This document shows positions 40,103-61,915 of a stretch of 64,000 bases of DNA, one piece after another. This DNA comes from Rikenellaceae bacterium (GTDB taxonomy: Bacteria > Bacteroidota > Bacteroidia > Bacteroidales > Rikenellaceae). The first letter of the stretch is position 1. The number at the start of each line of letters is the position of its first letter. The stretch is taken from the NCBI GenBank assembly GCA_031547885.1, contig JAVBRO010000002.1, positions 29,886-93,885 on the forward strand. Reading direction: 5' to 3'. A program made the translations under genes and the position numbers. The notes under the pieces are model-generated. The model ran no database searches. It saw only the letters and a list, made by a program, of their open reading frames with translations, and was not told the origin of the DNA.

Positions 40103-40108
40103 GCCCGG

Positions 40109-40543: not shown

Positions 40544-40556
40544 GTCGGTTCGGTTT

Positions 40557-41711: not shown

Positions 41712-41720
41712 ATCTTTTTT

Positions 41721-42698
41721 CTATTTTCCCAAAGTATCCGACCACACGGTTTTATTCCGTCCGCCTATTCTCGTTGTAACCTGGAAGGTGGTTCCCGCGG
41801 CGAACAGTTTTTCCAGCACCGCTCCCGTGAACATGGCGCAGATCATCACTTCGATCACATCGAGGGCCATATATAGCACAGCCGTAAAACCGACCGCATA
41901 AGTGATCACGTAGATCAGCGCGATGAGCGGGGTGCGGATATAGTAGACGAAGAATATGATCACCTGAATAACCTGAGAGATGACCAGGCCCCAGAAAATG
42001 TACTTGTTGTATTCGGCCTCCTTATTCATAAGCCCCACGACAGCGAAGGCGGCGAATCCCAACGCCAAAACGACTATGGTAAGGAAGCAGCCTCCCTGTC
42101 CTTTTTCCGCCCCTTTGGGAGTCGATTCGGCGATCAGCTGCAGCGTCTGGAGCCATAGGAAGACCTGTACCCCGAGGAACAACACGAACGCCAGGAAATA
42201 GACCGTCGCCTTCCACCAGCTACCCAGAACGAACGGAGAATAGAACGTGAACTGGTAACCGTTTGCCAGGTACAGTATCTCGAGAACGCTGGCCAGCAGT
42301 ATCCCGGCCATCAATATGGGGATGCGTACTTTTCTTACCTTTATGGTTGCCAGCGACAGGATGAGTGTAGCCAATACGATGATGATCCCCCATGTGACCA
42401 TTTGGGTCTCTTTTTCGACCCGGTCATCGGCAAGGGCTTTCATTTTTTGCGCGGCATCGTCCAGCGGATCGAGTCGCTTGATCTTCATATAGCCGGTTTT
42501 CTCACCGGCGGTGATCGAACACCAGCCGTTATACTGTAGGTTATTGACACAAACCTCTTCGCCCTTGTCGACCGAACCCCTGGCAGGGGTCAGTGTCGAG
42601 GGCGAACCGTACAGGTTCACGTCGAAGTTGCAGACGAATTTCTGCGCCGAGACAAGCATCGGGCAGATTATCATGATAAGTAGCAAAAGTCTTTTCAT
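41721..42698 (-). CDS. Membrane protein with N-terminal extracytoplasmic SH3b-like domain and about 7 TM helices (hypothetical)
   Basis: Signal peptide MKRLLLLIMIICPMLVSA, an SH3-like stretch (GSVDKGEEVCVNNLQYNGWCSITAGEKTGYMKI), then multiple TM helices. Confidence 0.5.
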   Translation of the reverse strand: MKRLLLLIMIICPMLVSAQKFVCNFDVNLYGSPSTLTPARGSVDKGEEVCVNNLQYNGWCSITAGEKTGYMKIKRLDPLDDAAQKMKALADDRVEKETQMVTWGIIIVLATLILSLATIKVRKVRIPILMAGILLASVLEILYLANGYQFTFYSPFVLGSWWKATVYFLAFVLFLGVQVFLWLQTLQLIAESTPKGAEKGQGGCFLTIVVLALGFAAFAVVGLMNKEAEYNKYIFWGLVISQVIQVIIFFVYYIRTPLIALIYVITYAVGFTAVLYMALDVIEVMICAMFTGAVLEKLFAAGTTFQVTTRIGGRNKTVWSDTLGK

Positions 42699-42772
42699 AT
42701 ACACTGGTTATTAAGTACGGCCCAAACGTACTCCAGGGGCATATGAAAAACATAGACAAAAATAGATTTTAG

Positions 42773-44569
42773 TCAGATGATCATCCGGAACGGGTCTTCT
42801 TTCGGAAATTTTTTCCGGATGCGGTAGCGTACGGTTCGTACGCTCGCAGGCTCGACGTTGAATATAAGGCTGATGTCACGGACGTCAACGTCAGCGTTGA
42901 AGCAGATGATATATTTCATGTCCATGCCGGTGATCTTAACCTTCGAAGTGCGGTATGCCTGTCCGAGAGTACCGCTGTCGATCCGGGACAGCCGGTCGAG
43001 ATATCTCTTTTTATCCTCTTTTCCAATGGGCGAGTCGGATATCATTCGGGCCATTTTCGCAACGGCGCTTTCCACCGGATCGCCCTGTGCATCCTGTCCG
43101 TTGCCGGCCTGCATTTTGTCCAGCTCGTTCTGACGAAGTTCTGCGAGCAGGGCTGTTTCGTAAAGCCGTTGTTCTACGTTTTTTCGCTTCAGGCGGCCGC
43201 TCACGGCTACGAAAACAAGCGTCGTCAATAGCAACAGGAGTAATCCGATGGCCAGTGTCAGGATGATCCTGGCTGTCCTGTTCTCTTTGGTCAGGGTCTG
43301 GATCCGTATTTCCTTTTTTTCCGTTTCATATTTGGCCGACATATCGTTCATGGCCTGGACTTTCTCCTTTTCGTAACGCCTCGCCTCTGTGTCGAACAGC
43401 ATTTTATGATATTTAAGAGCTTCGCCGGGCTGTCCGGCTTTTTCGTAATATTCGACCATAAATTCATATGCGTCGTGTCGAAGTACGCTCAGATTCTCGT
43501 AATTATGCAGCTGGTCGAGCATCTCCAGGGCTTCGTTCATCGCGGCGAGGGACTCGCGCATCCGCCCTTCGCGCAGGAGCGCCTTAGCCCTCACTTCATT
43601 CATGTGGATTTTCAATTCGAGACGGGAGTTGTTTTCGTTATGCCGTCCCATACTTATTTCCAGTTCCATCATCTCCGCCGCTTTATCGAGGTTCGACAGG
43701 ATCGCGTCCGTCCGCTCGGGATAATAGTCGTTCAGCTCTCTGGCCAGAAAGTAATAGGCATACCCGTGCATCCAGGAGGCCGCCAGATCCGCGAAATTGT
43801 TTTCTACAAGTTCAATGTTCTTACGGACATACAGCAGACACAAATCTATAATTTCCTGATCGAACGGCTCGCCATTCTTTTTCTGGCTTTCGAGCAGCAG
43901 CCCGTAATAGCTGTGTTTGATGACGTTATACTGGTATTGCGACTGCGGGAAATTGTCCTTTTCGAGGTAATCCTCCATCTCTTTCAGAACCCTTTCCAGG
44001 GCATCTGTATCCTTGATGTCGAAAAAGCTGCCGGCAATGGTATAAAGCGCCGTCGACGACCATGTATACATCTCCATTTTGTCGAAATAGTGAATGGCCA
44101 GATAGAGGTATTCGTGTGCCTTTTCGGTTTTTCCGCGTTTGATCTCCCTGCCGGCATTCGCATAGCTCATGAGCGCACAGGCCTGGTCTTTCCCGGACTC
44201 TATGGCCGCTTCGAGGGCTTTTTCGCCGAATACGCGCTCCATTTCGTCATCGCCTTCGCCGGCTCGTTCGCGGTAGCAGAAACTTATCGATATGTATAGC
44301 TGGGAAAGGCCGGCCAACTGGGAGGACTTATCAGACCAGTTTTCCTGAACGAAAGGATACAGTACCGTGCGGCATAACTCCTCCGCCTCTTCCGGCGAGG
44401 AGTTGGAGCATACCATATTATATCCTGATTTGAAACGTGTTTCCACGTCGAGAGAGTCGTTATGCAGGATTGTCTGAAGGGAGTCCCTTACGTTGAATTG
44501 TTGTCCGTAAGCCACAGATGCAAAGAGCAGGCAAAGCAGGAATATCGGGTATAGTCGGGTTAGCTTCAT
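42773..44569 (-). CDS. Single-pass transmembrane regulator: periplasmic TPR-like domain - TM - cytoplasmic LuxR-type HTH
   Basis: Signal peptide from MKLTRLYPIFLLCLLFASVAYG (start 44569). Long helical TPR-like region. TM helice ILTLAIGLLLLLLTTLVFVAV. C-terminal DMKYIICFNADVDVRDISLIFNVEPASVRTVRYRIRKK resembling a LuxR/GerE HTH. Confidence 0.55.
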   Translation of the reverse strand: MKLTRLYPIFLLCLLFASVAYGQQFNVRDSLQTILHNDSLDVETRFKSGYNMVCSNSSPEEAEELCRTVLYPFVQENWSDKSSQLAGLSQLYISISFCYRERAGEGDDEMERVFGEKALEAAIESGKDQACALMSYANAGREIKRGKTEKAHEYLYLAIHYFDKMEMYTWSSTALYTIAGSFFDIKDTDALERVLKEMEDYLEKDNFPQSQYQYNVIKHSYYGLLLESQKKNGEPFDQEIIDLCLLYVRKNIELVENNFADLAASWMHGYAYYFLARELNDYYPERTDAILSNLDKAAEMMELEISMGRHNENNSRLELKIHMNEVRAKALLREGRMRESLAAMNEALEMLDQLHNYENLSVLRHDAYEFMVEYYEKAGQPGEALKYHKMLFDTEARRYEKEKVQAMNDMSAKYETEKKEIRIQTLTKENRTARIILTLAIGLLLLLLTTLVFVAVSGRLKRKNVEQRLYETALLAELRQNELDKMQAGNGQDAQGDPVESAVAKMARMISDSPIGKEDKKRYLDRLSRIDSGTLGQAYRTSKVKITGMDMKYIICFNADVDVRDISLIFNVEPASVRTVRYRIRKKFPKEDPFRMII

Positions 44570-45184
44570 ATCTGTAGTAGTAAGAGAATGGGTTTTTATT
44601 TCACACGAATATCGGAATAAATTCCGTGAATGCATCATATACGATTGCAAAATAAGCATTTATATTTAGAAAACGGTCACCGGATCGGTAACAATCATGG
44701 AACTGGTCAGAGCTGTCATCGGGATTAACTGCAATACTGTGTTCCCAAATTTCACCCATCCCGGTTTGACCACCTCAAAAAGGAGTGCCGAGAAAAACCG
44801 GTATAGGTAGATATTTATAAAACAAAAATCTTAACACCCGGCAATCAGGGTGCGAAGAGGCTTCAAGGGAGTATAATTTTGTGAAAAACACCGACTGCCG
44901 GAACCAAATGGATACTATATGGACAAACATCTGACGATCCCCCACCCTGTTTTAAATAATCTGTTGATTTTCATGTTGAAGCCGGTCTCTGTTGCCATCG
45001 AGAAAACCCTGCGTAAAAAAATCTTAATTTTTTCGTATAAAACACGTAAGAAATTTCATTTTTTTTTGGAATGAAAATAATAAAGTATTACTTTTGTTTT
45101 GAAATGAAAGATATTGTCTTCAAATCGAAACCTAAGCTATGTGAAAATTAAGCCTTAAGTATTAACAAACAACCCATCAACTGT
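44570..45184. promoter_or_regulatory. 615-bp divergent regulatory region containing G(A/G)AATGAAA direct repeats and a TACTTTTG -7 box
   Basis: GGAATGAAAATAATAAAG and GAAATGAAAGATATTG lie about 30 nt apart around a TACTTTTG -7-like motif, upstream of the phosphoesterase start at 45185. AAATTTCATTT palindrome. Confidence 0.4.
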
Positions 45185-47194
45185 ATGAAGCAACATTACT
45201 TGAAACTAATCCTTATTTTCACGTTTACATTCAGTCTTCTTAGTGTTTCTGTCGGCTGCAGCAAAGAACCTGCTGCAAAACCGGCAGACGACATCGCACT
45301 GAGTGTCAAACTACCGTCGGTATACACCCTGCCGCCGGGCGGAACCCTCGTCTTTCTTGGAGACGGCTTTTTAAAAGGCGACAAGATCCAATTGGTGGGC
45401 AGCGATGCCACACTGACCGTCAACATCTCGATTATGGAGAATGGAGCGGTGTCGTTCGTCCTGCCGGAAAATTTCGAATGGGGTTATTACAAATTCGTTC
45501 TCATAAGAGGAGATGCCAAAAAGACCCTGGGTTATTCGCATATCTCTTTCGGGATCAAGCTGGATGTTCCTGAAGTCGAAGGCATGAATCTCAGAGGCGC
45601 AGTAACGACGGCCGACGGAGCGGGCGTTCCCGGAGTTTCCGTTTCCGACGGTGTCGAAGTCGTACAGACGGATGCGAACGGGCTTTACTATATTGCGTCG
45701 AAGAAAGAGTCGGGATTTGTGTTTATTTCCGTGCCGGGCGACTACACGGTGGAAATGGATGCATCCACACCTGTTATGTACAAGCGCACGGCTTCGTACA
45801 GCAAAGATGTCTCGGAAAGGTTCGACTTTTACCTGGCCCCGGCCGACAACACCAAATATACGCTGATCGCAGCCACCGACTTTCACCTGGCCGACAGGAA
45901 TAATGACCTTGGGCAGTTCCGCCAGGGTTTTGCGTCTGAAATAACGGCGCTCGGCAGGACGAAGAACGTGCATTGCGTTACTATGGGCGACCTGACGTGG
46001 GACCTTTACTGGTACAGCCTGTCGTTCACGCTGAGTAAGTTCAGGACGGAGTTGAGTTCTATAAACGTTCCGATGTACCACACCATGGGCAACCATGACT
46101 ACGATATGAAGGGGCGCAAACTGACCAGTTCGGACATCACACCGCCTTATGTTTACAACTCGACATACGCCTACATGAACACCAGCGACTGGGTGTCTGC
46201 CGGCACATGGCGCACGGATATGGGGCCGACCTACTATTCGTTCAACATCGGCGAGGTGCATTACATCGTGGTCGACAATATGAACTGTACGAACGGCGGG
46301 ACTTCGGACACCCGGACCTACACCGGAATGATCGACGCGAACCAGATGGCATGGGTGGCGAACGACCTGAAGTTCGTGGACCCGTCCACCCCGATATTCG
46401 TGACGATGCACATACCGCACAAGGGACAGCCCAGCACCGCCAATGTCGCGTCTAACAACCTGACCAACTCCGCGGCGTTCAAGACACTGTTCAACGGCTA
46501 CAAGGAAGTGCATATCCTGACGGGCCACACCCACGTAGGTTATAACGTGGTTGAAGAATCGGGCGGCGACCTGTGGTACGAGCACAATACCCCCGCTGTT
46601 TGCGGAACATGGTGGTGGACCGGCAGACCGGGATACACCGACAACAACGTCGCTCCCGACGGCGCTCCGGGCGGTTATTGCGTTTACGAAATCGACGGAA
46701 AAAATATCACATGGAAGCAGAAAGGTGCGGGTAAAAGCATCGACTACCAGTTCCGTTCCTACGACCTTAACAAGACAGTGCTGCTTGCCAGCGAGTGGGT
46801 GCCCAACGCCACTGCGGCATTGAAATCTTCATGGGCTTCCAGTTCGTACGCAGGTTCATATCAGACGGCTAAAACCAATGCGATCCTTCTCAATATATGG
46901 AACTGGGATCCGGCATGGAAGATCAAGCTGACCGAAGGCGACGGCGCTTCGGCCAAAACCCTGACAGCAACCCGCGTACAGCGCAGGGACCCGCTTCAGA
47001 TGATCTCCTACACGGCTTTCAGCATGGACGGCGGAAGTTCTCCTACATTCGGCTCAAACAACTCGACGCACTTCTTCGAGGCGCAGGCGACCACCGCTAC
47101 CGAGACCATATATATAGAGGTAACCGACAGGTTCGGCAATGTCTATAAAGAAACCATGGCAAGGCCCAAAGCGGTTTCCCGTACTATGCAATAA
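45185..47194 (+). CDS. Lipoprotein calcineurin-like metallophosphoesterase with N-terminal carboxypeptidase-regulatory-like domain
   Basis: Lipoprotein signal (LLSVSVGCS). CarbopepD_reg-like stretch (GAVTTADGAGVPGVSVSDGVEVVQTDANGLYYI). MPP motifs (ATDFHL, GDLTWD, GNHDYD, MHIPH, GHTHVG). Confidence 0.8.
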   Translation: MKQHYLKLILIFTFTFSLLSVSVGCSKEPAAKPADDIALSVKLPSVYTLPPGGTLVFLGDGFLKGDKIQLVGSDATLTVNISIMENGAVSFVLPENFEWGYYKFVLIRGDAKKTLGYSHISFGIKLDVPEVEGMNLRGAVTTADGAGVPGVSVSDGVEVVQTDANGLYYIASKKESGFVFISVPGDYTVEMDASTPVMYKRTASYSKDVSERFDFYLAPADNTKYTLIAATDFHLADRNNDLGQFRQGFASEITALGRTKNVHCVTMGDLTWDLYWYSLSFTLSKFRTELSSINVPMYHTMGNHDYDMKGRKLTSSDITPPYVYNSTYAYMNTSDWVSAGTWRTDMGPTYYSFNIGEVHYIVVDNMNCTNGGTSDTRTYTGMIDANQMAWVANDLKFVDPSTPIFVTMHIPHKGQPSTANVASNNLTNSAAFKTLFNGYKEVHILTGHTHVGYNVVEESGGDLWYEHNTPAVCGTWWWTGRPGYTDNNVAPDGAPGGYCVYEIDGKNITWKQKGAGKSIDYQFRSYDLNKTVLLASEWVPNATAALKSSWASSSYAGSYQTAKTNAILLNIWNWDPAWKIKLTEGDGASAKTLTATRVQRRDPLQMISYTAFSMDGGSSPTFGSNNSTHFFEAQATTATETIYIEVTDRFGNVYKETMARPKAVSRTMQ

Positions 47195-47206
47195 TAAATT
47201 ATTATA

Positions 47207-50200
47207 ATGCAATCTATGAAATCCAATATAAGTATTCTGTTAAAAGCGGCTTTGTCCCTCTGTTTCACTTTCGCCTGCATTCAGGCTTGGGGACAGGCCA
47301 AAAGTGTTACCGGTACTGTTTATGAGTCCGACGGCAAAACTCCCATGGCAGGGGTAATGGTCCGTGTCGTCGATACAAATACGATCGAGGTTACAAGTGC
47401 AGAGGGTAAATTCAGCATCCGTGTACCGAATAACGAAGCCAGCCTCTCCTTCACCATGATGGGCTATGAAACCAAAACCATTCAGGTGGGTGTACAAAGC
47501 CTTGTCAATATGACGATGGAAGAGTCCACTACTCAGATCAGCGAAATCGTGGTTACCGCCCTCGGTATCACCCGCGAGGAAAAATCGCTGGGTTATGCCG
47601 TTACAAAAGTGGGCGAAGACGTGATTACCAGCACTGTTTCGAGCAACTGGCTCAACTCGCTTTCAGGAAAGGTGGCAGGTCTTAATTTCGACGGAGCATC
47701 GTCGGGCCCCAGCGGGTCGATGCGCGTAACGCTCCGCGGCGAGGGGTCGCTTAAGCACGATGCCAACGAAGCCCTTTTCGTGATAGACGGGATACCTATC
47801 GGCAACCCGAAAGTCACGTCCGGATCCTCTTCTTACGGCGATCTCGAGGCTCCTGTTGACTACGGTAACAACATCGGCGACCTTAACCCCGACGATATCG
47901 AATCCATTTCGGTGCTGAAAGGGCCTGCTGCAACGGCTCTGTACGGTTCGCGCGCAGGTAACGGCGCTATCGTGATAACCACCAAAAGCGGCCGCAAGAC
48001 AAAGGGTATCGGCATTACGGTGAACAGTTCAATAGTGTTCGAACAGGCCGGATTCTGGCCCGACCTGCAGTATGAATACGGTGCGGGTAACGGCTCGATG
48101 TCCGTAGAGGACGGTTTGCAGCAGTTCTACTACTCTTTCAAAAACATACCCAACCCGAGGGATACTTCAGACGGCGGCACCACTATCGGACGTAAACAGT
48201 CGCGTTATGCGTGGGGTCCGAAATACGAAGGACAGATGTTCTACCAGTACAACGGCTACGACTGGAATACAGGCCTCTGGAAAGCTACTCCCTGGCAGGC
48301 GAAGGACTGGTACACGGGATTCTTCAAAACCGGCGTCACATACGCCAACTCCATCTCCATAGACGGCAGTTCCGGCAAGGGCAATTCGTTCCGTCTTTCC
48401 GTCAAGGACCAGCGCAATACATGGATCATTCCCAACACCGGCTACAATTCGCAAACTGTAAGCTTCTCTTTCTCGAACGAAGCGAGCAAATACGTACGTG
48501 TAACTGCAAAAGCCACCTATCTGCGCAAGAACAGCGACAACCTCCCCCCTACAGGTTATTCACAGGCTTCGCCTCTTTACGCCATCATCTATAATGTTGC
48601 GAGCGAAGATATAAGCAAATACAAAGCCGAATATTTCGACGGCCGCATACAGTGGGCTCACAAGGGGATGGCCGACAATCCGAACAACATTGCCGCCTAC
48701 GGGGAACTTCTGATAAACAATGCGAGCGGGGCACGCTCCGAGAATGCCTACTGGCTGGCTTACGACAACACGAACAGCCTCGACCGCGACAGGGTTTACG
48801 GCAACGTACAGGCGGAGGCCGACATTACGAAGTGGCTCACCCTGCAGTTTCGTTCGGGGATCGATTTCAGCGACGACTTCCGCACCCAGCGCAAACCGCA
48901 ATACTCTTACGGCTATGCCTATGGCTGGTACAGGGAGCAGACCAACACCTTCTATGAGATGAACAACGACTTCCTGCTCACCTATAACGACAGGTTCGAC
49001 AAGATCGGCCTGACGGTCAACGCATCTTTCGGCGGCAATAACATGGTTGCCAACAACAGGTTTATAAGGGATACGGCCGAAGAACTCAAAGTCCCCAATA
49101 TCTATATGATCAGCAACGCCCGTACAAAGGCAACACCCATAAACGAGCGTTCGAACAAATCCGTCAACAGTCTCTACGGTGTTCTCTCGCTGGGATGGAA
49201 AGATATGGTCTATCTCGACGTTACGGGCCGTAACGACTGGTCGAGTACCCTCGCTCCCGAAAACTGGTCATTCTTCTATCCGTCGGTCAGCGCCAGCGTT
49301 TTGCTGGAAGAGGTGTTCAAGCTGAGGCAAAAAACCCCGTGGATCGACATGCTGAAACTCAGGGCGTCGTGGGCCAACGTAGGTAACGACACCGATCCTT
49401 ACGGCATCTATGCAAGTTACAGTAACAGTGTATTCTCCGGCGGGCAGAGGCTTGCCGACCAGATGCCGTACTATAACATATTGCCGGAAAATGTCGAAAG
49501 CCTCGAATTCGGTATGGAAGCGAAGTTCCTCAAGAACCGCATTTCGTTCGACCTTGCATGGTACCACTCAAAAACCACCAATCAGTCCATTCCGTTCCAG
49601 ACGGGATGGCTTACCGGGGCGGAATATCAGCTTGTCAATGCCGGCCGCGTCGACAACAGGGGCGTCGAAATATCCGGTCGTTTCCAGCCGATACGTACAA
49701 AAGATATCACATGGACTATAAGCGCCGCATGGGCCAAGAACTGGAATAAACTTGTCGCTCTGACCAGCCAGAGCGACATATGGCAGCTGAACTCCTCGAA
49801 CACGGTGAGCAACAGTATCTTCATCTACGCTTTCACCGGGCAGGAACTCGGCCGCATATATGGTTTCGGTTATGAAAGGGCACCGCAGGGCGCTTATTAT
49901 CTGGATGCACAAGGCAAAACGGTAGATTGTTCGGGGCAGACGATCCTGGATGCAAGCAGCGGCCAGCCTTACGTAGACACGAGCGATCTGAGAGACCTCG
50001 GCAGCATCTTCCCCGACTGGCAGGGAAGCATCAGTACGTCCTTCTCATGGAAAGACCTGTCGGTCAACGCTACCTTCACCGGTCAGATGGGCGGAAAGGC
50101 ATACTCCGTCACCAACCAGTCGCTTTCCATGCAGGGTAAAGTAAAATCGACCCTCGAAGGACGCTACGACGGCCTTATGCTCCAGGGTGTAAACCGCAAT

Positions 50201-50554
50201 TCAGACGGAACTTACTCCAACAACACAACCATCATATCCGATATCGTCGGTTATTACACCGACGCGGTATGGCTCAACAGGAATACAGAAAACAATATTC
50301 ACAGCACTTCGTTCCTCAAGTTCAAAGAGCTGCGCGTAGACTACTCGCTCCCGGCCCGCTGGATCACCCAAACGAAAATCTTTCAGGGTATTTCGGTCGG
50401 TTTCTTCGTCACCAACGTCTTCTGCTGGACCAAATTCCCGCAGTATGACCCGGAAGTGGCATCGCTCGACAACGGCTCTATAAGCCGCGGTATCGAGAGC
50501 GGTGCATACCCGATGACACGTACATACGGCATGAATTTTAAACTTACGTTCTAA
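47207..50554 (+). CDS. SusC/RagA-family TonB-linked outer membrane transporter
   Basis: Signal peptide, CarbopepD_reg-like N-domain (VTGTVYESDGKTPMAGVMVRV), TonB box region (EIVVTALGI) and plug (NPDDIESISVLKGPAATALYGSRAGNGAIVITTK). A 1115-aa barrel ending KLTF. Confidence 0.9.
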   Translation: MQSMKSNISILLKAALSLCFTFACIQAWGQAKSVTGTVYESDGKTPMAGVMVRVVDTNTIEVTSAEGKFSIRVPNNEASLSFTMMGYETKTIQVGVQSLVNMTMEESTTQISEIVVTALGITREEKSLGYAVTKVGEDVITSTVSSNWLNSLSGKVAGLNFDGASSGPSGSMRVTLRGEGSLKHDANEALFVIDGIPIGNPKVTSGSSSYGDLEAPVDYGNNIGDLNPDDIESISVLKGPAATALYGSRAGNGAIVITTKSGRKTKGIGITVNSSIVFEQAGFWPDLQYEYGAGNGSMSVEDGLQQFYYSFKNIPNPRDTSDGGTTIGRKQSRYAWGPKYEGQMFYQYNGYDWNTGLWKATPWQAKDWYTGFFKTGVTYANSISIDGSSGKGNSFRLSVKDQRNTWIIPNTGYNSQTVSFSFSNEASKYVRVTAKATYLRKNSDNLPPTGYSQASPLYAIIYNVASEDISKYKAEYFDGRIQWAHKGMADNPNNIAAYGELLINNASGARSENAYWLAYDNTNSLDRDRVYGNVQAEADITKWLTLQFRSGIDFSDDFRTQRKPQYSYGYAYGWYREQTNTFYEMNNDFLLTYNDRFDKIGLTVNASFGGNNMVANNRFIRDTAEELKVPNIYMISNARTKATPINERSNKSVNSLYGVLSLGWKDMVYLDVTGRNDWSSTLAPENWSFFYPSVSASVLLEEVFKLRQKTPWIDMLKLRASWANVGNDTDPYGIYASYSNSVFSGGQRLADQMPYYNILPENVESLEFGMEAKFLKNRISFDLAWYHSKTTNQSIPFQTGWLTGAEYQLVNAGRVDNRGVEISGRFQPIRTKDITWTISAAWAKNWNKLVALTSQSDIWQLNSSNTVSNSIFIYAFTGQELGRIYGFGYERAPQGAYYLDAQGKTVDCSGQTILDASSGQPYVDTSDLRDLGSIFPDWQGSISTSFSWKDLSVNATFTGQMGGKAYSVTNQSLSMQGKVKSTLEGRYDGLMLQGVNRNSDGTYSNNTTIISDIVGYYTDAVWLNRNTENNIHSTSFLKFKELRVDYSLPARWITQTKIFQGISVGFFVTNVFCWTKFPQYDPEVASLDNGSISRGIESGAYPMTRTYGMNFKLTF

Positions 50555-50575
50555 CCGCTAAAGATTGACAGAGAT

Positions 50576-52105
50576 ATGAAATCAATGAAACATATTATTA
50601 TTTTGGTGTCTGGAGCGGCGCTTATGCTTGGAGCCTGTACGCACAAGTTCGAAGAGTACAACACAGACCCGAACCATCTGCCCATATGGAGTATCGCTCC
50701 TTCGGCACTGTTGGAACAGACCCTGTATTCAGGAGCACAGGGCTACATGACACGCTTCCGCGACCTGACCGGCGAATTGATACAGTTCTCGGCTTCGGGG
50801 TTGGGAACCACGGCGGTACACCGCTATGCGATAACCGGTAACGCCGCAACCGGCACATGGGACCATTCTGCGGAATGGGCTGCCAATGCCGACCATATGT
50901 ACAAACTTGCAGTCAGGCAGAACGACGTCAATTTCCAGGCGATAGGACTTACCCTGAGGGCGTTGTTCATGTCCAACCTGACCGACGTTTTCGGCGATAT
51001 TCCGTTCAGCGAGGCGTTCACCATCTATAGTAATGAGGCTATCATCCTGATGAAGTTCGACGAGCAGAAGGATATATACACTCAGCTTTTCAAGGACCTT
51101 GAGGAGGCCAACCGCCTCTACAGTCCTTCCAAGGCAATGAGCGACCCCGCGGTGGACCTGCTCTACAAAGGCGACATTACAAAATGGAAGAAATTCACCA
51201 ACTCGCTTTATCTGCGCCTGCTGATGAGGCTCAGCAACCGCGACACTGAAATGAAAGTGAGCGAGAAAATAGCTGAGATCTTCGCCACTCCGGGTAAATA
51301 TCCCGTGTTTTCGAGCCGGGAAGACGGTGCGATACTCGAATACACCGGAATAACCCCATTCATAAATACCTACGGGAATACCGAAGTCACTTCATGGAAC
51401 GGCAAAACAGCTGCCCTGTACGGAATCAAGCTGCTCCAGGATTGGGGCGACCCGCGCATCAACCTCTATTACACTATGCGCGGAAACGATTGGAACGGTA
51501 TCGCCAGCGGGATGCCTGTTGCCGAAATAGATAATTCCGGCCTTGCCGTCTACCGGAAAAAGACGCTCGGAGAGTTCACATCCCCTTACGCATTCATGCG
51601 CTATGAAGAGGTCCTGTTCATTAAAGCCGAGGCCGCATTCTTCGGATGGGTGCCGGGCGGCCCGACTCTTGTAAAAGAACTCTACGACGAAGGAGCCGCC
51701 CAGTCCATCAGATTCTGGGACTGGCAGGCCGGCAACTTTATGGAGAACCGCGAGTTGTCCATAGATATGTACTTAAGGCGTGGAGATTACGCAAATACGA
51801 CTCAGGGAACCCCATATGACGGAACCTATGAAATGTTGATGACGCAGAAGTACATCTCGATGTTCTGGTGCGGTTTCGAGGCATGGCACGATTGGCGCCG
51901 CACCGAACTGCCCGTCCTTACGATAGGTACCGATACGGGGAACGGCGGGATACTTCCCAGAAGGTTCGAATACCCCATCGAGATCCGCAAATCGAACATG
52001 GACAATTACAATGCGGTCGTAGCCAGGTATATGTCGAAATACGGTTCGGGCGACAATATGCAGACCCCGGTCTGGTGGTCGCTCAACGCAGTGCAGAACA
52101 ATTAA
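50576..52105 (+). CDS. SusD/RagB-family nutrient-binding outer membrane lipoprotein
   Basis: Lipoprotein signal (AALMLGACT). TPR-like helical SusD fold features. Immediately downstream of SusC (21-nt gap). Confidence 0.8.
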   Translation: MKSMKHIIILVSGAALMLGACTHKFEEYNTDPNHLPIWSIAPSALLEQTLYSGAQGYMTRFRDLTGELIQFSASGLGTTAVHRYAITGNAATGTWDHSAEWAANADHMYKLAVRQNDVNFQAIGLTLRALFMSNLTDVFGDIPFSEAFTIYSNEAIILMKFDEQKDIYTQLFKDLEEANRLYSPSKAMSDPAVDLLYKGDITKWKKFTNSLYLRLLMRLSNRDTEMKVSEKIAEIFATPGKYPVFSSREDGAILEYTGITPFINTYGNTEVTSWNGKTAALYGIKLLQDWGDPRINLYYTMRGNDWNGIASGMPVAEIDNSGLAVYRKKTLGEFTSPYAFMRYEEVLFIKAEAAFFGWVPGGPTLVKELYDEGAAQSIRFWDWQAGNFMENRELSIDMYLRRGDYANTTQGTPYDGTYEMLMTQKYISMFWCGFEAWHDWRRTELPVLTIGTDTGNGGILPRRFEYPIEIRKSNMDNYNAVVARYMSKYGSGDNMQTPVWWSLNAVQNN

Positions 52106-52130
52106 CAGGATTACTAAAAAACTATCAATA

Positions 52131-54386
52131 ATGAAAGCTAATAAATATCTTTCAATCAAAGCAGTCCGGATATTGCCGATCGCGGTTCTCCTTGCGTTAG
52201 CCGTCGGTTTTACGGCGTGCCAGAAGGACGACCCTACAGTCGACACATACATAGACCTGGGTATTCCTGACGACAAACTGAAGATCGAAGCTCCGGTCGA
52301 AGGAATAGCAGATAAAGAATCAACCTCTGACCAGTCTTATTTAAAGAACAGGCTGTGGTACAATGTCCACACCGACTACCAGGCATGGCAGATAGAGGTG
52401 GAATACCTGTACGATGCCGACCTGGACTGGGTTACGGTGTGGCCAAAAAACGGTGAGGTCGACGGACGTTTCAGTGTCTCCGTTGCAAGGAACAAAACCA
52501 CTCCTTACCTGCGCGAAGCGCTCGTACATATCAAATCCGGCGGACAGACCCTCAAGACCATCAAAGTCAGTCAGGCTGCAGTGGCCCCTGTACTGGAACT
52601 CGGCATGGAGGGGCTGACCCGCATGACCTTTGCCAGCAAAGCCTCTGAGAAGACGGCCAAACTCAACACAAACGTCCTGTGGGTAGCAGAAATCACCACC
52701 CCGAACACAGACTGGCTGAGCCTTTCGGATTTCGAAGCGCAATCCGTGCTTCTGACCGTGAAAGCAAATCCAGGCAGCTCTCCGAGATCGGCCGTCGTGC
52801 GTTTCACGATGATAGGCGGCAGCGACGATCTGTTCGTAGATCTCAGTGTCGTTCAGAGGGACAAATCTACAGACCCCGAATATGCGACCCTCACCACGAT
52901 CGCGGATGTTCTCAACAAGGTCGGCCCCAATGGCGGCGAAATCGAAGAGAACGTTTACGTGGAAGCATGCGTGACCAGCGACCTCAGCCGCCGGAATTTC
53001 GACTCCAGGCGCCAGTGGCCGGGCACGGAATCCACTTCACAAACTTTCTACGCCGACTACATGTATGAAAAGAGATATATGTGGATACAGGACGAAAGCG
53101 AAAGAGGTTTGATGCTCGAATGGCTCTCTGCCGATTTCAACAATTATCCTCTCAACACCAAACTCAAAGTACACCTTGTCGGCGCTACGGTGGTAAAGGA
53201 CGCCTTTACCGGTGCGTTGAAGATAGGCAGCGTCGAACCCGACATGATATTCGGTTCCGAAGAATCGGACGGCATAGCGCCCGTGGAACTCGACTCGTTC
53301 GACAATATCGCCGACTATGTGAACACTCTGATCAAGGTCAACCCGGTTCAGTTTGCCCTACCCTACGGAACATACGTAAACATCGACGAGCGTTATTTCA
53401 ACCAGCAATACATGACCGACGTTACGACAAGTTCGGTACCATATTGCGAAACGTCGCGGCAGTACGGCCACTTCATAATGGACAAGCACGGGAACAGATA
53501 CCGTCTCGTTACCGAGTGTACGTTTACGGAACGATACATCCGCGCTATACCCAGCGGTTCCGGACCTCTGACCGCCATAGTCACTAAAAACTGGCTTGCC
53601 AACGAAAACCAGATCGTTCTGCGCCTGCGTATGGACAGCGACAATGAAGTTTCGGACGATGCTTCGACGCGCCTCACCAATGTCATCAGCCGCTTCGGCC
53701 CGTACACCTACAACTCTTCCGGTCTGCCTTCGATTCAGGCGGCTATTGGTAACGGCACCTTCAGAACAGGGGTTTTCACCAAGGTGACCCCGAGCGGCGA
53801 CGGCACCGGAATGTACTGGTCGCAGACTTATGCCCGCATGCCGAAATCATTGTCGGACATCACCATAGATGACGCCGGTGTACAGAGCACCGATGTTCCT
53901 CAGCCGTCCGATGCCAACGAGTTCATGTACCCCTGTATCAACGCCAACCAGATGTGGAATCCCAACCTGGCCTCTGTGATCCCCGATGCGAAAATAGGCG
54001 GCTGGATAATCACTCTGGATACCAGGGGCGTTACGGGCGACCTCTACCTTACGTTCGACTCGTCCTCTTCGCAGTCGGGTCCGGCCTGGATGAGGCTGCA
54101 GTGGAAGGAAATAGTGGTTCCCTCGGACTCATTTACAACCAAAGACACCTGGAACACTATAATAACCAGGTATGAAATTCCCAACTGGGATGTGAACTTC
54201 CATTGCCAGCAGTACTCCTACAAGCTGCCTGCTGAGATAAAAGGTAAAAAGGAAGTCATTATCAGGCATATTACCGACTTCGAAAGCGACGGTTCGGAAG
54301 CAAAGCGCGCAGCCCGCAACGGAGCTGTGGCCGGCAACGGCGGAACGAACCGTATGGGTGTCTGGTCGCTCGAAGAGTTAAAATAA
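52131..54386 (+). CDS. Surface lipoprotein with two N-terminal BACON-like domains and a large C-terminal domain of unknown function
   Basis: Lipoprotein signal (LAVGFTAC). BACON-like cores (DLDWVTVWPKNGEVDGRFSVSVARN...REALVHIKSGGQTLKTIKVSQ and TDWLSLSDFEAQSVLLTVKANPGSSPRSAVVRFTM). Confidence 0.55.
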   Translation: MKANKYLSIKAVRILPIAVLLALAVGFTACQKDDPTVDTYIDLGIPDDKLKIEAPVEGIADKESTSDQSYLKNRLWYNVHTDYQAWQIEVEYLYDADLDWVTVWPKNGEVDGRFSVSVARNKTTPYLREALVHIKSGGQTLKTIKVSQAAVAPVLELGMEGLTRMTFASKASEKTAKLNTNVLWVAEITTPNTDWLSLSDFEAQSVLLTVKANPGSSPRSAVVRFTMIGGSDDLFVDLSVVQRDKSTDPEYATLTTIADVLNKVGPNGGEIEENVYVEACVTSDLSRRNFDSRRQWPGTESTSQTFYADYMYEKRYMWIQDESERGLMLEWLSADFNNYPLNTKLKVHLVGATVVKDAFTGALKIGSVEPDMIFGSEESDGIAPVELDSFDNIADYVNTLIKVNPVQFALPYGTYVNIDERYFNQQYMTDVTTSSVPYCETSRQYGHFIMDKHGNRYRLVTECTFTERYIRAIPSGSGPLTAIVTKNWLANENQIVLRLRMDSDNEVSDDASTRLTNVISRFGPYTYNSSGLPSIQAAIGNGTFRTGVFTKVTPSGDGTGMYWSQTYARMPKSLSDITIDDAGVQSTDVPQPSDANEFMYPCINANQMWNPNLASVIPDAKIGGWIITLDTRGVTGDLYLTFDSSSSQSGPAWMRLQWKEIVVPSDSFTTKDTWNTIITRYEIPNWDVNFHCQQYSYKLPAEIKGKKEVIIRHITDFESDGSEAKRAARNGAVAGNGGTNRMGVWSLEELK

Positions 54387-54399
54387 AACCGGAATTATC

Positions 54400-57072
54400 A
54401 TGAAAACTTTTGAATTGATAAAAAAATCATTGCTGTTGATCGCAGTCGCCTCTGCCGTACTGCTCAACTCGTGCCAAAAGGATCCGAAAACCGAGGCGCA
54501 GCCTACCCTTTCGGTGCCTACGGCGGATCTCCTCGTGTCCAAACTGGGGCTCGACTACAAGGGAAGCATACCCTCTTTCGACATCGAGTCCAACACTTAC
54601 TGGACCATCAAGATGGAAGCGGTCCCTTCCTGGGAAGAGGGCGGACCGGAGTGGATATTACTCTCCAAACGCGGAGGAAACGGTAATTCGACCATATCGC
54701 TGTCTGTCGTTCCTAATTACACCGAAGACACCCGTACGGCAACCATAACCATCACTACGCAGTTCGGGCTGACGAAGACCATACATCTGCTTCAGATGGA
54801 TACCGATGAAACGGTCGCTTTCTATACCGACGATTTCGGTTCGTCGGCGAACAATGCGCCGGTCGACAGTTTTACCGGTTGGAATTATTCGGGCATAGGG
54901 GTCGATTCTTCGAAGGGCGGGCTTCCGTTCTCTTATGAAGGAACCGCTGTAGTTGACAAATCCGATCCTTCGACGGGTTACGACGGGGCGTCGGGCGGCA
55001 ACAACATCCTGCTGTCAGGCGCAGATGCCGGCATCGTCATGAAGCACATCAGGCCCCTCGGCATGGTGAAGATGGACGTCTCGTTCGGTTCGGCCTCTTC
55101 GGGAGCTTCTTTCGACTCCTCGGAACTGATCCTCGAGATCAGCAGCGACGGCGAGAACTGGTATGATATACCCTATGTCCGCGGCACCGGCGCCGAATGG
55201 GAATACTCGACATTCAGCCTGACCCTGGCCGAAGCCTATGCCTACATTTTCCTTCGTTTCCGCACGACCGACGGCGAATACAGGATCGATGATGTTGCGG
55301 TCACATACGGCGAAGGCGGCGATGTGTACGAGCTTGTCGTGATCCTTCCTCCCGAACCGGAACCTTACAAAGGCACGACATTCCCCGTGTTCTGGAAGAT
55401 GACGGCAGCCGAATACAACAACAAAGAGGGTATATGGTTCTCTACGTTCAGCTATGCGAACGAAAGCCTGTATATCCTGTCAAACCAGTACGGCAATGAG
55501 GAAAGCCTGATGGGCCCGGCCTCTATCAGCTATGTACTCGGCGAGAACAGGCCGACCGACGGAGAACCTTTCAAGGCGGAAATCGGCACTACGGGCCAGC
55601 CTTTTGTTTCGGGCGCATGGACCGACGACTACTGGCTCTTCACCACCCCGGTCGAGAACATCAACCCGGGAACGATTGTCAACATCTCGTTCCTCACCCG
55701 CAGCAGCGCTTCCGGTATGAAATACTTCGCGCTGGAGTATTATGCCGGCGGCCAGTGGCACGCGGCTTCGGAATTGCAGAATGCCACGGAAGATCCAAAC
55801 ATCAGGTATACCCATATCATGCCTGCCGATGCCTCGAATACGTTGGTGAACTGCAAATTCGTCATGCCCGACGCTATCGTCGAGGACGACATGCTGATCC
55901 GTTTCAGGTGCGCCGGAAATATCAGGTGCAGCAACGGGGCGGTCCTGCCCACGGTTAACGGCGGCACCCACCGCATCGCTGCGGACACGGGAGGTACGGG
56001 AACATGGGCTACGATAGACATTACGGATCCCAACGACAAGCCTGATGTGGTTACGTTCAAACTGACCAGCGTCACAGTCGACGGAAAGGGGTTAAGGTCT
56101 GTAAAGGTACCCGCGGCTCCGGCACCATATGTCTTTACTGTAACGGCCGACTGGGATTGGACCCTGTCGACCACAGACCTCGGTTGGGCTACGGTAACTC
56201 CGGACAACGGCAATAGGGGGGCAACTGTTTCAGTTACTATTCTGCCTGAAAACTATACCGGACTCAGCAGCCGTCAGGGTTGGATAACTCTGACCTCGGG
56301 CGACACGACGCTCGACATACTGGTTATCCAGGACAGGCCGGGAAGCAGCGAAGGCGCCCTTAAAGACGACGGGAAAGCGGTCGGATATGTCTATTTCGAA
56401 GACAATTTCGACTGGGTCGTACCTTTCGGCGGACCGGACGATGTGGGCAATATCAATACTTTTGCCGCAGGTGTAGCGCCTGACTATCCGTCGTCGGGCT
56501 ATCCTGTCGTTACCGGCACATTGAATATGTATTCAGCCGCACCTGCCGGTTATAGTGCAGGCGATCTTGCTCTTGCATTTGCCGATCATGGATACGAGGA
56601 CCTCTTCCCATACGCGCTGTCGTCATGGCGATGCATCTATTTCGGGGCACATTACCTGAAATTTGGCAAAACCGACCGTCAGACGGGTATTGTGAGAACC
56701 ATTCCAGGCATAGCCGAAGACAAGGGCACCAATATCAGCTTTACGTTCGAGGCCCTTCCGTGTATTACCGGAAGCGGCAACTACGACCAGGTCTCCCTGG
56801 TGGTGGAAATAATCGACGGTCCTGGTTCGGTGGGCATCAATGACGGAGTAACGACGATCAGCGAACCGATGAGCGTAACGCAGACCAACAAGACTTTCCC
56901 GTGGGCATGGCAGCCTAAGGAAGTGGTTCTCTACGGCGTAACTTCGGAAACCAAGGTAACGCTCAGAGTCCCCTACGGAGCGGCTCCTGCAGTAGCAGGG
57001 AACACAACGGGAACATTCCGTTACTATCTGGATAATTTGAAATTTACCAAGCACAGTTTGGTGACGCAATAA
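54400..57072 (+). CDS. Surface lipoprotein (890 aa) with N-terminal BACON-like domain; candidate substrate-binding protein of the PUL
   Basis: Lipoprotein signal (LLNSC). YWTIKMEAVPSWEEGGPEWILLSKRGGNGNSTISLSVVPNYTEDTRTATITITTQFGLTKTIHLLQ is BACON-like. A second similar module is near residue 580 (WATVTPDNGNRGATVSVTILPENYTGLSSRQGWITLTSGDTTLDILVIQ). Confidence 0.5.
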   Translation: MKTFELIKKSLLLIAVASAVLLNSCQKDPKTEAQPTLSVPTADLLVSKLGLDYKGSIPSFDIESNTYWTIKMEAVPSWEEGGPEWILLSKRGGNGNSTISLSVVPNYTEDTRTATITITTQFGLTKTIHLLQMDTDETVAFYTDDFGSSANNAPVDSFTGWNYSGIGVDSSKGGLPFSYEGTAVVDKSDPSTGYDGASGGNNILLSGADAGIVMKHIRPLGMVKMDVSFGSASSGASFDSSELILEISSDGENWYDIPYVRGTGAEWEYSTFSLTLAEAYAYIFLRFRTTDGEYRIDDVAVTYGEGGDVYELVVILPPEPEPYKGTTFPVFWKMTAAEYNNKEGIWFSTFSYANESLYILSNQYGNEESLMGPASISYVLGENRPTDGEPFKAEIGTTGQPFVSGAWTDDYWLFTTPVENINPGTIVNISFLTRSSASGMKYFALEYYAGGQWHAASELQNATEDPNIRYTHIMPADASNTLVNCKFVMPDAIVEDDMLIRFRCAGNIRCSNGAVLPTVNGGTHRIAADTGGTGTWATIDITDPNDKPDVVTFKLTSVTVDGKGLRSVKVPAAPAPYVFTVTADWDWTLSTTDLGWATVTPDNGNRGATVSVTILPENYTGLSSRQGWITLTSGDTTLDILVIQDRPGSSEGALKDDGKAVGYVYFEDNFDWVVPFGGPDDVGNINTFAAGVAPDYPSSGYPVVTGTLNMYSAAPAGYSAGDLALAFADHGYEDLFPYALSSWRCIYFGAHYLKFGKTDRQTGIVRTIPGIAEDKGTNISFTFEALPCITGSGNYDQVSLVVEIIDGPGSVGINDGVTTISEPMSVTQTNKTFPWAWQPKEVVLYGVTSETKVTLRVPYGAAPAVAGNTTGTFRYYLDNLKFTKHSLVTQ

Positions 57073-57116: not shown

Positions 57117-57169
57117 GCTGAGCGGTTTCACGCCTGAAATACTTAGGGCGGAAACCGCTCAGCTATTTT
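57117..57169 (+). terminator. Intrinsic terminator of the PUL
   Basis: 13-bp perfect stem GCTGAGCGGTTTC...GAAACCGCTCAGC with a 21-nt loop, followed by TATTTT. Confidence 0.65.
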
Positions 57170-57652: not shown

Positions 57653-58063
57653 ATGAAAACACTGCTCCGGAAAAAGCTCCCGGCCTTTTCGCTGTCGGAA
57701 CTCCTCGTCGTCCTTGTAATAATAGGCATCCTCGTGCTGATCGCCCTGCCGAACCTGATGCCGCTCATCTCGAGAGCCAAGAGCACCGAGGCACAGCAGC
57801 AGCTCACCTTCCTGCACACTCTCCAGAAAAGCCATTTCTACACCCACTCGCGCTACTCGGAATCTCTCGAAGAGCTCGGTTTCGAGCAGCAGAGGCTCGT
57901 CACCGACGGAGGGTCGGCCAATTACCTTATAGAAATAGTCGAATCATCCGAGCGCGGTTTTGTGGCAACGGCGACGGCTGTGGTCGATTTCGACGGCAAC
58001 GGGGTATTCAACGTCTGGGAGATAAACCAGGACAAGGAGCTTCATGAAACCGTAAAAGACTGA
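57653..58063 (+). CDS. Type IV pilin / pseudopilin-like protein (prepilin-type N-terminal cleavage/methylation domain; Ala at -1)
   Basis: MKTLLRKKLPA-FSLSELLVVLVIIGILVLIALP: a class-III signal with conserved Glu at +5 and a hydrophobic alpha-1 helix. 137 aa. Confidence 0.6.
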   Translation: MKTLLRKKLPAFSLSELLVVLVIIGILVLIALPNLMPLISRAKSTEAQQQLTFLHTLQKSHFYTHSRYSESLEELGFEQQRLVTDGGSANYLIEIVESSERGFVATATAVVDFDGNGVFNVWEINQDKELHETVKD

Positions 58064-58083
58064 CACCGACTCATATATAACCG

Positions 58084-58557
58084 ATGGAATATCTGCCCTT
58101 ACTTATGCTCGCACCGTTATCACATCTCATTGTAAGCGACTTCCGCAGCCGGGAGGTGTCGGTCATGTGGCTGGGTATACTTGCCATAGGAACTGTGTGC
58201 ATACCGGTCATTCAGGACGGATGGCTGGATGTGCTGAAGCGTAGCGGACAGAACCTGCTGCTGATATTGTATATGTCGACCGGCATCGTCGTGTGGGGAT
58301 GGATAAAGGCACGGAAATTCGTCAACCCGATCAATGTATACATAGGGCTGGGCGACGCGCTGTTCTTCCTGATACTTATTCCGCTGTTCCCCGTGAAGCA
58401 TTATGCCTGGCTGCTGGTGGCGTGTATGATATTTTCGCTTGTGTGGTGGGGTGCCGCCGTCCTGTTAAAAAAGAAATCCCCGAAAAACATCCCTTTTATA
58501 GCGACCTCGGGGATCGTGCTGGCCGGGGCTATCATCTTTAAAGTCTTTTTCACATGA
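58084..58557 (+). CDS. Minimal prepilin peptidase (A24 family, peptidase domain only)
   Basis: 157 aa with multiple TM helices, a first catalytic Asp in the SDFRSR context and a second in the IGLGDALFF (GxGD) motif. 4-nt overlap with the downstream ATPase gene. Confidence 0.6.
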   Translation: MEYLPLLMLAPLSHLIVSDFRSREVSVMWLGILAIGTVCIPVIQDGWLDVLKRSGQNLLLILYMSTGIVVWGWIKARKFVNPINVYIGLGDALFFLILIPLFPVKHYAWLLVACMIFSLVWWGAAVLLKKKSPKNIPFIATSGIVLAGAIIFKVFFT

Positions 58558-59978: not shown

Positions 59979-59983
59979 ACCCG

Positions 59984-61903: not shown

Positions 61904-61915
61904 ACCCCCGACAGT

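Follow-up and report, generated by a model that had tools for sequence, protein, structure and literature searches.

The window analysed here is a 64,000-nt stretch of the genome of a Rikenellaceae bacterium (GenBank assembly GCA_031547885.1, contig JAVBRO010000002.1, positions 29,886 to 93,885 of the forward strand). It contains a five-gene operon encoding a lipoprotein metallophosphoesterase (MPE), a SusC/SusD pair and two large surface lipoproteins. SusCD systems are usually read as glycan importers; we propose, with a probability of roughly 0.6, that this operon is instead a Sus-like system that acquires a phosphodiester-containing nutrient, resembling the Pus loci of Flavobacterium.

Organization of the operon

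The features of the operon, in window coordinates, are as follows.

45089..45096, + strand: candidate Bacteroides-type −7 promoter element TAnnTTTG (TACTTTTG), a pattern match in the 525-nt intergenic region
45185..47194, + strand: lipoprotein MPE, 669 aa (Pfam/NCBIfam, lipobox)
47207..50554, + strand: SusC/RagA TonB-dependent transporter, 1115 aa (TIGR04056, TIGR04057)
50576..52105, + strand: SusD-like lipoprotein, 509 aa (PF12771, SusD-like_2; lipobox)
52131..54386, + strand: surface lipoprotein, 751 aa, with two BACON domains, DUF5689 and a jelly roll (Pfam, model)
54400..57072, + strand: surface lipoprotein, 890 aa, with BACON, further modules and an ‘X’ domain (Pfam, hhalign)
57117..57169, + strand: intrinsic-terminator-like hairpin closing the operon (folding energy, U-rich tail)

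The five open reading frames (ORFs) span 45185–57072 on the + strand with intergenic gaps of 12–25 nt, exactly at the positions and in the order given by an initial annotation of this DNA. The strong terminator hairpin that it described is also borne out, with a folding energy of −39.6 kcal/mol (z = −6.95 against shuffled sequences) and a U-rich tail, UAUUUUG, directly after it. The candidate −7 element TACTTTTG lies 96 nt upstream of the first ATG and may represent the promoter element of the operon. Scans for sigma-70 promoters and generic terminators gave matches at chance level, the sigma-70 consensus being uninformative for Bacteroidota, and an Rfam scan of the window returned only a tRNA, located away from the operon.

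The susC and susD genes are 21 nt apart and form the adjacent pair by which a polysaccharide utilization locus (PUL) is recognised. Lipobox cysteines are found in the MPE (C25), SusD (C21), the 751-aa protein (C30) and the 890-aa protein (C25), each followed by a K/D/E-rich stretch. Such stretches are associated with surface export in Bacteroidota, and the lipoproteins, including the MPE, are predicted to be surface-exposed. The co-localised glycoside hydrolase (GH), polysaccharide lyase (PL) or carbohydrate esterase (CE) that also characterises a PUL is absent: the Pfam scan of the window, which covered the larger ORFs selected as likely genes, detected no GH, PL or CE family in the operon or among these ORFs. 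The operon can therefore still be described, as it initially was, as a PUL without any glycoside hydrolase, and the concern that carbohydrate-active enzymes (CAZymes) might be encoded immediately nearby is not borne out. Homologues of glp genes, GDPD or nucleases were not found among the six-frame ORFs of the whole 64-kb window.

The metallophosphoesterase

The MPE is the only recognisable enzyme of the operon, the ‘X’ domain of the 890-aa protein being without a known fold. It consists of a signal peptide with the lipobox, an Ig-like domain (residues ∼36–125), MetallophosN (138–215; PF16371, 70.9 bits against a cut-off of 35.6), Metallophos (230–451; PF00149, 31.4 bits against 21.5) and MetallophosC (466–654; PF16370, 125.9 bits against 29.7). 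The motif set of the calcineurin-like superfamily (DxH, GDxxD, GNH[DE], H, GHxH) is complete and includes GDLTWD at 268–273, GNHD at 302–305 and GHTH at 447–450. The GDxxxD, GNHD and GHTH motifs from which a binuclear metal site had originally been deduced are thus real, and since all seven canonical metal ligands (D232, H234, D269, N303, H409, H448 and H450) are invariant in an alignment of 30 homologous sequences, the site is not degenerate. The N-terminal CarbopepD_reg-like domain that had also been assigned to the MPE was misplaced: the CarbopepD_reg_2 match of Pfam sits on SusC, and the N-terminal β-sandwich of the MPE is MetallophosN, which follows a further Ig-like domain (TIG in some homologues). 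A private insertion of ∼20 aa directly after GNHDYD distinguishes the MPE of the window clade.

A single-sequence PDB search with the MPE returned nothing useful, and a profile of the MPE family gave only weak matches to purple acid phosphatases (PAPs), one of them to a wheat PAP phytase (E 1.3e-5). The PDB matches at E ≤ 0.01 did not include GpdQ. Purple acid phosphatases are mainly monoesterases. Motif I of the MPE is DxH, unlike the PAP-type Asp/Tyr arrangement. We infer that the enzyme acts as a diesterase rather than a monoesterase.

The transporter and the two large lipoproteins

SusC matches TIGR04056 with 564.3 bits (cut-off 368.25) and the signature TIGR04057 with 58.7 bits (cut-off 46.2), and carries Plug as well as CarbopepD_reg_2 domains; SusD matches PF12771 with an E-value of 7e-88.

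The 751-aa protein contains, besides its two BACON domains, a DUF5689 domain at residues 318–500 (44.6 bits against a cut-off of 28.6), which is an OB-fold module, and a C-terminal CBM-like jelly roll. Its structural model shows Ig/BACON, OB-fold and CBM-like jelly-roll folds only, with no catalytic fold, and the protein is a candidate binder of a polyanionic substrate. In the 890-aa protein Pfam recognises only BACON. Its layout comprises a BACON domain, β-sandwich modules at ∼130–315 and ∼370–535, a second BACON domain at ∼580–645 and the ‘X’ domain at ∼655–890; an AF2 model built from a 5-sequence alignment reached a pLDDT of 42. Single-sequence PDB searches with either protein were uninformative. 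The last third of the 890-aa protein corresponds to the conserved BACON-X lipoprotein that follows SusD in the glycerol-phosphate-linked (glp-linked) locus family described below (residues 567–882 against a profile of 28 BACON-X lipoproteins; hhalign probability 99.4%, E 1.7e-21). An exhaustive HMMER search found 481 representatives sharing one or both modules of its central 446 residues; BACON is present in 48 of the 56 that were scanned with Pfam, and the other domains in these 56 proteins are binding modules only, each in few of them (F5/8C, reelin subrepeat B, MAM, CBM6). Both lipoproteins look like non-catalytic binding proteins, judging from the folds of the 751-aa model and the company of the 890-aa modules, in keeping with their initial description as candidate substrate binders, which had overlooked the DUF5689/OB-fold of the former and the BACON-X likeness of the C-terminus of the latter.

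A Bacteroidota-wide family of MPE-SusC-SusD loci

With a threshold of E ≤ 1e-5, the MPE family has 5454 or more members. When each GTDB species was represented by one genome, a scan yielded 359 relatives of the MPE, with a best identity of 41% among the species representatives, and the best 80 of the 359 loci were examined by our own ORF calling, phmmer labelling and Pfam scans of the neighbours, many of which remained unannotated. SusC/SusD is encoded within four genes of the MPE in 49 of the 57 loci with room on both sides. The association of this MPE subfamily with SusC/D, which the initial annotation had left to comparative genomics, thus extends across Bacteroidota.

Two arrangements recur. 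In Bacteroidales, Rikenella, Prolixibacteraceae and Cytophagales the order is MPE (∼650 aa), SusC (∼1110), SusD (∼525) and a lipoprotein (∼410), and in Sphingobacteriaceae and Flavobacteriaceae it is SusC, SusD, lipoprotein, MPE, GDPD and MFS. The lipoprotein after SusD is of the BACON-X type in 37 loci and a ∼520-aa DUF5689 protein in 13. The ∼520-aa DUF5689 lipoproteins of Sphingobacteriaceae (e.g. locus L044, 8342–9928) run on into a segment with the motif ‘GNYEYIQL’, which we take to resemble a lamin-tail domain.

The identifiable neighbours in the 80 genome loci are glycerol-phosphate genes and not glycosidases, many other neighbours being unannotated. Their Pfam families are DeoR, GlpD (DAO + DAO_C), GlpK (FGGY), GlpF (MIP), GlpT-like MFS, GDPD and HAD hydrolase. 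Among the 61 SusCD-containing loci, GDPD is found in 32, GlpT-like MFS in 30, GlpD in 28, DeoR in 23, GlpK in 14, HAD in 12 and GlpF in 9, counts that are underestimates owing to contig ends and short contigs; about 10 of the 61 lack an adjacent GDPD, GlpT, GlpD, GlpK or DeoR gene within 10 kb, as does the window operon. The glp-type loci also carry a sulfatase-family protein with the formylglycine motif CSPSR. The conserved cluster (loci L005–L084, e.g. L040:414-18148, L044:99-14299 and L075:3831-17928) reads DeoR, GlpD, (formylglycine sulfatase-like protein), GlpT-like MFS, HAD, GDPD, long lipoprotein MPE, SusC, SusD and a BACON-X or DUF5689 lipoprotein, and looks like a glycerophosphodiester or poly(glycerol-phosphate) utilization locus. 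This glycerol-phosphate context of the parent family had escaped the initial annotation. In L040, Amidase_3 and a NamZ exo-muramidase gene lie just downstream on the opposite strand.

MPE-GDPD fusion polypeptides occur in three loci (L004:2380-4647, L022:16885-19119 and a 743-aa ORF of L069) and join a short, signal-peptide-bearing, non-lipoprotein MetallophosN/Metallophos/MetallophosC enzyme to a GDPD domain, which ties the chemistry of the MPE to glycerophosphodiesters. The long MPEs are lipoproteins and the short paralogues carry signal peptidase I (SPI) or Tat signals (e.g. the Tat-like RRxFLK signal of L035:12029-13438), a division that matches the Sus scheme, in which one enzyme works at the surface and others in the periplasm.

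The window operon has the composition that defines this family, namely a long lipoprotein MPE, SusC, SusD and a BACON-X or DUF5689 lipoprotein in one cluster. Its MPE is ∼40% identical to those of the glp-type loci, its SusC 45–48% identical to theirs and 52% to that of L003, and its SusD 36% identical (median) to theirs and 41–49% to those of L003 and L004 (blastp). These identities and the hhalign match of BACON-X indicate, at the level of sequence, that the operon is a derivative of the glp-linked MPE-SusCD family. Derivation involved insertion of an extra BACON-BACON-DUF5689-CBM-like lipoprotein and fusion of BACON-X behind ∼570 residues of additional modules. Both features, together with the ∼20-aa MPE insertion near GNHD, set the window apart from the glp-linked loci, with which it shares the long lipoprotein MPE, SusC, SusD and the BACON-X unit. 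Unlike the glp-linked family, it has no adjacent GDPD, GlpT-like MFS, GlpD, GlpK, HAD or DeoR gene.

Closest relatives

Loci of this derivative type are rare. Among 5.8 billion proteins, word-based searches picked up eight relatives of the 751-aa protein and five of the 890-aa protein, and a metagenome scan for loci of the 751-aa type added only four, all of the L003 type. The closest relatives (L085/L094, L087, L096, L004 and L003/L090–L093) retain SusC, SusD, the DUF5689 protein, the MPE and a large BACON protein, their additional genes being confined to those for phosphoesterases, GDPD, a sulfatase-family protein or an S1/P1 nuclease; Pfam detected no glycosidase in the same-strand gene clusters of these rare-type relatives. 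In L085/L094 the MPE is 78% identical to that of the window and the five genes are the same. L087 adds a short MPE, and L002/L096 (Alistipes sp.) read SusC, SusD, short MPE, DUF5689 protein, long MPE and a 1225-aa BACON protein. L004 adds an MPE-GDPD fusion; close to it, but on the other strand, lie genes for a GH31 and for a protein of the inositol-monophosphatase family. The human-gut loci L003 and L090–L093 end with a lipoprotein sulfatase-family enzyme and a signal-peptide-bearing S1-P1 nuclease (L003:15557-17991, L090:19121-21519). The sulfatase-family motif is Ser-type SSPTR here and Cys-type CSPSR in the glp-type loci, and the sulfatase-family enzymes at MPE-SusCD loci may be formylglycine-dependent phosphodiesterases rather than sulfatases. 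The operon looks like a self-contained module, since its closest relative, L094, has other flanking genes than the window.

Comparison with known systems

Canonical PULs share with the window operon the adjacent susC/susD pair, BACON/CBM-like surface lipoproteins and a surface-anchored hydrolase, but here this hydrolase is a phosphoesterase, GH, PL and CE are absent, and no hybrid two-component system (HTCS), SusR or extracytoplasmic function (ECF) regulator adjoins the operon. The chemistry proposed for the glp-linked family, in which a GDPD and a metallo-phosphodiesterase release glycerol-3-phosphate from polymeric or small glycerophosphodiesters, is that of GlpQ/PhoD and GpdQ; Bacillus subtilis GlpQ/PhoD degrade teichoic acid, and Enterobacter GpdQ is an MPE glycerophosphodiesterase. 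These systems differ in belonging to another cell envelope, in lacking SusCD and in showing no detectable close sequence relationship to the MPE.

The nearest functional precedent is provided by the PusCD systems of Flavobacterium, which Lidbury and colleagues described as SusCD-like, induced by inorganic phosphate (Pi) starvation and located beside phosphodiesterases, one of them calcineurin-like (PMC8115612). According to a 2026 preprint, growth on phosphatidylinositol and glycerophosphoinositol (GroPI) requires PusCD1/2, import of GroPI and inositol-1-phosphate has been shown for PusCD1, the cryo-EM structure has inositol-1-phosphate bound, and PusD1 and PusD2 have a phosphate-binding Arg/Trp pocket, with R312, R321 and W85 in PusD1 (bioRxiv 10.64898/2026.09.03.749221). 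Like Pus1 and Pus2 of Flavobacterium johnsoniae, the window operon combines a SusC/SusD-like pair with phosphoesterase in place of CAZymes, the combination that defines a PUL-like Pus locus for organophosphate acquisition (PMC8115612). However, a periplasmic location (SPI) is predicted for the Pus1 enzymes; the MPE of the window, by contrast, is a lipoprotein whose N-terminus is extended by an Ig-like domain. Pus loci are Pi-regulated and have ECF sigma/anti-sigma pairs; among the Pfam-scanned neighbours of the operon there is no such pair, Pho-type regulator or PhoBR. Nor have Pus loci been described with the BACON, DUF5689 or BACON-X lipoproteins seen here.

A second precedent is ddbABCDEF, a PUL-like DNA-utilization locus of gut Bacteroidales (Sharan et al., PMC12478041 / bioRxiv 10.1101/2025.03.18.642099). 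In it, DdbD, a DUF5689 protein, has been proposed to bind DNA as the partner of the TonB-dependent transporter (TBDT) DdbC. The locus is related to natural-transformation genes of Riemerella (PMC12478041), a DUF5689 protein being essential for Riemerella transformation (PMC8459023). The ddb locus resembles the window operon in its PUL-like organisation for a phosphodiester polymer and in having a DUF5689 (OB/HIN-like) surface lipoprotein as proposed binder. In contrast to the window, with its SusC/SusD pair and MPE, DdbC pairs directly with DdbD without SusD, and the ddb enzymes are secreted nucleases (Endonuclease_NS and EEP genes in homologous loci); moreover, DUF5689 in the window is embedded in a 751-aa BACON/CBM-like protein. 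Metallophosphoesterases, SusD and BACON are not mentioned in the ddb paper (PMC12478041). A ddb-like locus from a JGI metagenome (L088:5716-12210) encodes a BACON+DUF5689 protein of 1028 aa and, after it, Endonuclease_NS, Exo_endo_phos_3 and a CarboxypepD_reg protein that may be the beginning of a TBDT; this DUF5689 protein, P0125, has N-terminal modules in common with the 890-aa protein of the window.

Proposed function and alternatives

In the proposed uptake, the two large surface lipoproteins would capture an anionic phosphodiester substrate, the surface-anchored binuclear MPE would cut it to small fragments, and these would be bound by SusD and SusC for TonB-powered import, with periplasmic and cytoplasmic enzymes encoded elsewhere completing the breakdown; we infer this order of events. 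A Sus-like system for a phosphorylated substrate had already been suggested in the initial annotation, and the suggestion is strengthened by the intact metal site, the lack of CAZymes nearby, the association with SusCD and the phosphodiester- and glycerol-phosphate-related companions.

Our best single guess for the substrate, and a tentative one, is glycerol-phosphate-type phosphodiesters, either poly(glycerol-phosphate) teichoic/lipoteichoic fragments or phospholipid-derived glycerophosphodiesters. They are favoured because of the homology of SusCD, the MPE and BACON-X to the glp-embedded loci and because of the MPE-GDPD fusions. It is a more doubtful proposition that the operon and its parent family are utilization loci specifically for anionic phosphodiester envelope polymers of other microbes, chiefly poly(glycerol-phosphate) teichoic/lipoteichoic acids. 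The surface enzyme would then be an endo-acting metallophosphodiesterase that cuts the polymer, the polyanion would be bound by the DUF5689 OB-fold or BACON-X lipoproteins, SusCD would import oligo(glycerol-phosphate), and GlpT/GlpD would be supplied by GDPD or short MPEs in the periplasm.

Nucleic acid follows closely as a candidate substrate and is favoured by the OB fold of DUF5689, the S1-P1 nuclease of the L003 type and the modules shared with P0125. The operon could possibly serve nucleic-acid utilization or uptake as a SusCD analogue of ddbABCDEF, in which the DUF5689 lipoprotein binds DNA or RNA, the MPE works like Mre11/SbcD-type MPEs as a nuclease or phosphodiesterase, and SusCD imports oligonucleotides. 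This would agree with the DUF5689 match in the 751-aa protein, with the S1-P1 nuclease of relatives whose SusC is 52% identical, with the recurrence of the N-terminal modules of the 890-aa protein in P0125, encoded beside Endonuclease_NS and Exo_endo_phos_3, and with the roles of DdbD and the Riemerella DUF5689 protein (PMC12478041, PMC8459023). However, a DUF5689 protein follows SusD in 13 glp-type loci with GDPD, GlpT, GlpK, GlpD or GlpF, so the domain is not DNA-specific; its presence in clear glycerol-phosphate loci leads us to read it as a phosphodiester-polyanion binder and not as proof of DNA. Furthermore, neither the operon nor the rest of the window encodes a recognised nuclease, transport is assigned to a SusC/SusD pair and not to a DdbC-type TBDT, L004 has the MPE-GDPD fusion in place of a nuclease, and the type IV pilus-like cluster next to the operon is not conserved at the 78%-identical relative.

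Two other explanations are less likely. The operon would be an accessory module of a glycan or phosphoglycan PUL if the MPE stripped phosphodiester or phosphate decorations (e.g. of phosphomannan, capsular or teichoic-type glycopolymers, or GlcNAc-1-P linkages) and glycosidases encoded elsewhere degraded the glycan, which we consider unlikely. Glycan-binding PUL proteins typically contain BACON and CBM-like jelly-roll modules, and the GH31 and inositol-monophosphatase-family genes near L004 point the same way. Yet CAZymes are absent from the operon, the scanned ORFs of the 64-kb window and the same-strand clusters of the Pfam-annotated related loci, and the neighbours that can be identified in the genome loci are glycerol-phosphate genes. 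Still less probable is phosphate scavenging, in which a PAP-like phosphomonoesterase would free Pi at the surface under phosphate limitation and SusCD would import small phosphomonoesters. The PAP-only profile matches and the binding of inositol-1-phosphate by PusCD1 are in line with it, but motif I is not of the PAP type, MPEs of the family are fused to or co-occur with GDPD diesterases, no Pho-type regulator or ECF sigma/anti-sigma pair adjoins the operon, and the presence of two large binding lipoproteins with several modules each speaks for a polymer as substrate.

Several observations weigh against acquisition of a phosphodiester nutrient, or of glycerol-phosphate compounds in particular. 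The only sequence relatives of the MPE in the PDB are PAPs, and the ‘X’ domain of the 890-aa protein could be catalytic. The link of the window operon to glycerol phosphate is one of homology only, with no glp, GDPD or nuclease gene within the 64 kb, and with an identity of 36% SusD may well have changed its ligand. Nucleic acid is indicated by DUF5689 and by the S1/P1 nuclease of the L003-type relatives. In the tables of PMC10434189, BT0448, a MetallophosC protein of B. thetaiotaomicron, is listed in a glycan PUL with GHL10 proteins, SusC/D and a sugar MFS, and some family members may therefore act on phosphorylated glycans; BT4724-27 are likewise tabulated, as SusC/SusD plus GDPD. Finally, we found no biochemical or expression data on any member of the MPE subfamily in the open-access literature.

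Implications

Import of organophosphates by SusCD has so far been shown only in Flavobacterium (PusCD), and that of DNA, with another transporter, in gut Bacteroides (Ddb). The operon belongs to a third and much larger group of at least 5454 MPE homologues, with 359 genome loci in one scan, that spans gut, soil and marine Bacteroidota; our search of the open-access literature found no functional study of it and no papers on MetallophosN/C proteins, glp-linked MPE-SusCD loci or teichoic-acid use by Bacteroidota. The concept itself is less new than the initial annotation implied, organophosphate SusCD systems (PMC8115612; bioRxiv 10.64898/2026.09.03.749221) and PUL-like DNA loci (PMC12478041) having been published. 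Directly testable hypotheses arise from the MPE-SusCD pattern at the level of the family and from DUF5689 as a bridge from DNA-type to glycerol-phosphate-type loci. The conserved glycerol-phosphate neighbourhood suggests, as one such hypothesis, how phospholipid head groups, teichoic acids or nucleic acids may be harvested by Bacteroidota, which is relevant to the cycling of phosphorus and carbon and, in the gut, to cross-feeding on Gram-positive cells that have died. For the interpretation of the Ddb and Riemerella work it matters that DUF5689 also occurs outside DNA systems. If utilization of teichoic acids were true, this would be the first ‘teichoic-acid PUL’, and DUF5689 would be recast as a general phosphodiester-backbone binder common to DNA and teichoic-acid systems.

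Other genes of the window

The Pfam content of the window outside the operon includes housekeeping proteins (Rho, KdsB-like, MiaA and PutA), TPR/SPFH proteins, a two-component system, a fimbrial cluster of the Mfa/FimA kind and a cluster resembling type IV pilus/type II secretion system (T2SS) genes. This last cluster (57653–63405, + strand) encodes an N_methyl-motif pilin, a T2SSE ATPase, a secretin and a PilN-like protein. It was considered as a DNA-uptake partner of the operon and rejected, its adjacency being absent in the 78%-identical relative L094; the pilin has only a sub-threshold ComP_DUS match, and the cluster is probably unrelated to the operon.

Divergent from the operon lies a 628-aa TPR protein (42773–44659, − strand) whose C-terminus resembles, by eye only, a LuxR-type helix-turn-helix; it could be a regulator, but the related loci have no counterpart beside them, and we claim no link to the operon. 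The nearest two-component system (32456–35154, + strand), ∼10 kb upstream, consists of a histidine kinase (DUF4118+HisKA+HATPase_c) and an OmpR-type response regulator, with no evidence of a link to the operon. Between these, at 36672–42704 on the − strand, are genes for a 542-aa BACON lipoprotein, a 599-aa TPR protein and an SPFH/Band-7 protein that ends in a GYF_2 domain, as well as two ORFs that Pfam does not match; they are not homologous to the BACON proteins of the operon beyond the BACON domain. The Mfa2/FimA-type fimbrial cluster (22878–31998, − strand) includes DUF3575 and OmpA/TPR proteins and ORFs of 1043 and 472 aa without a Pfam match. Further upstream (6306–8531, + strand), a 741-aa protein combines a patatin-like phospholipase domain with an Omp85-type β-barrel.

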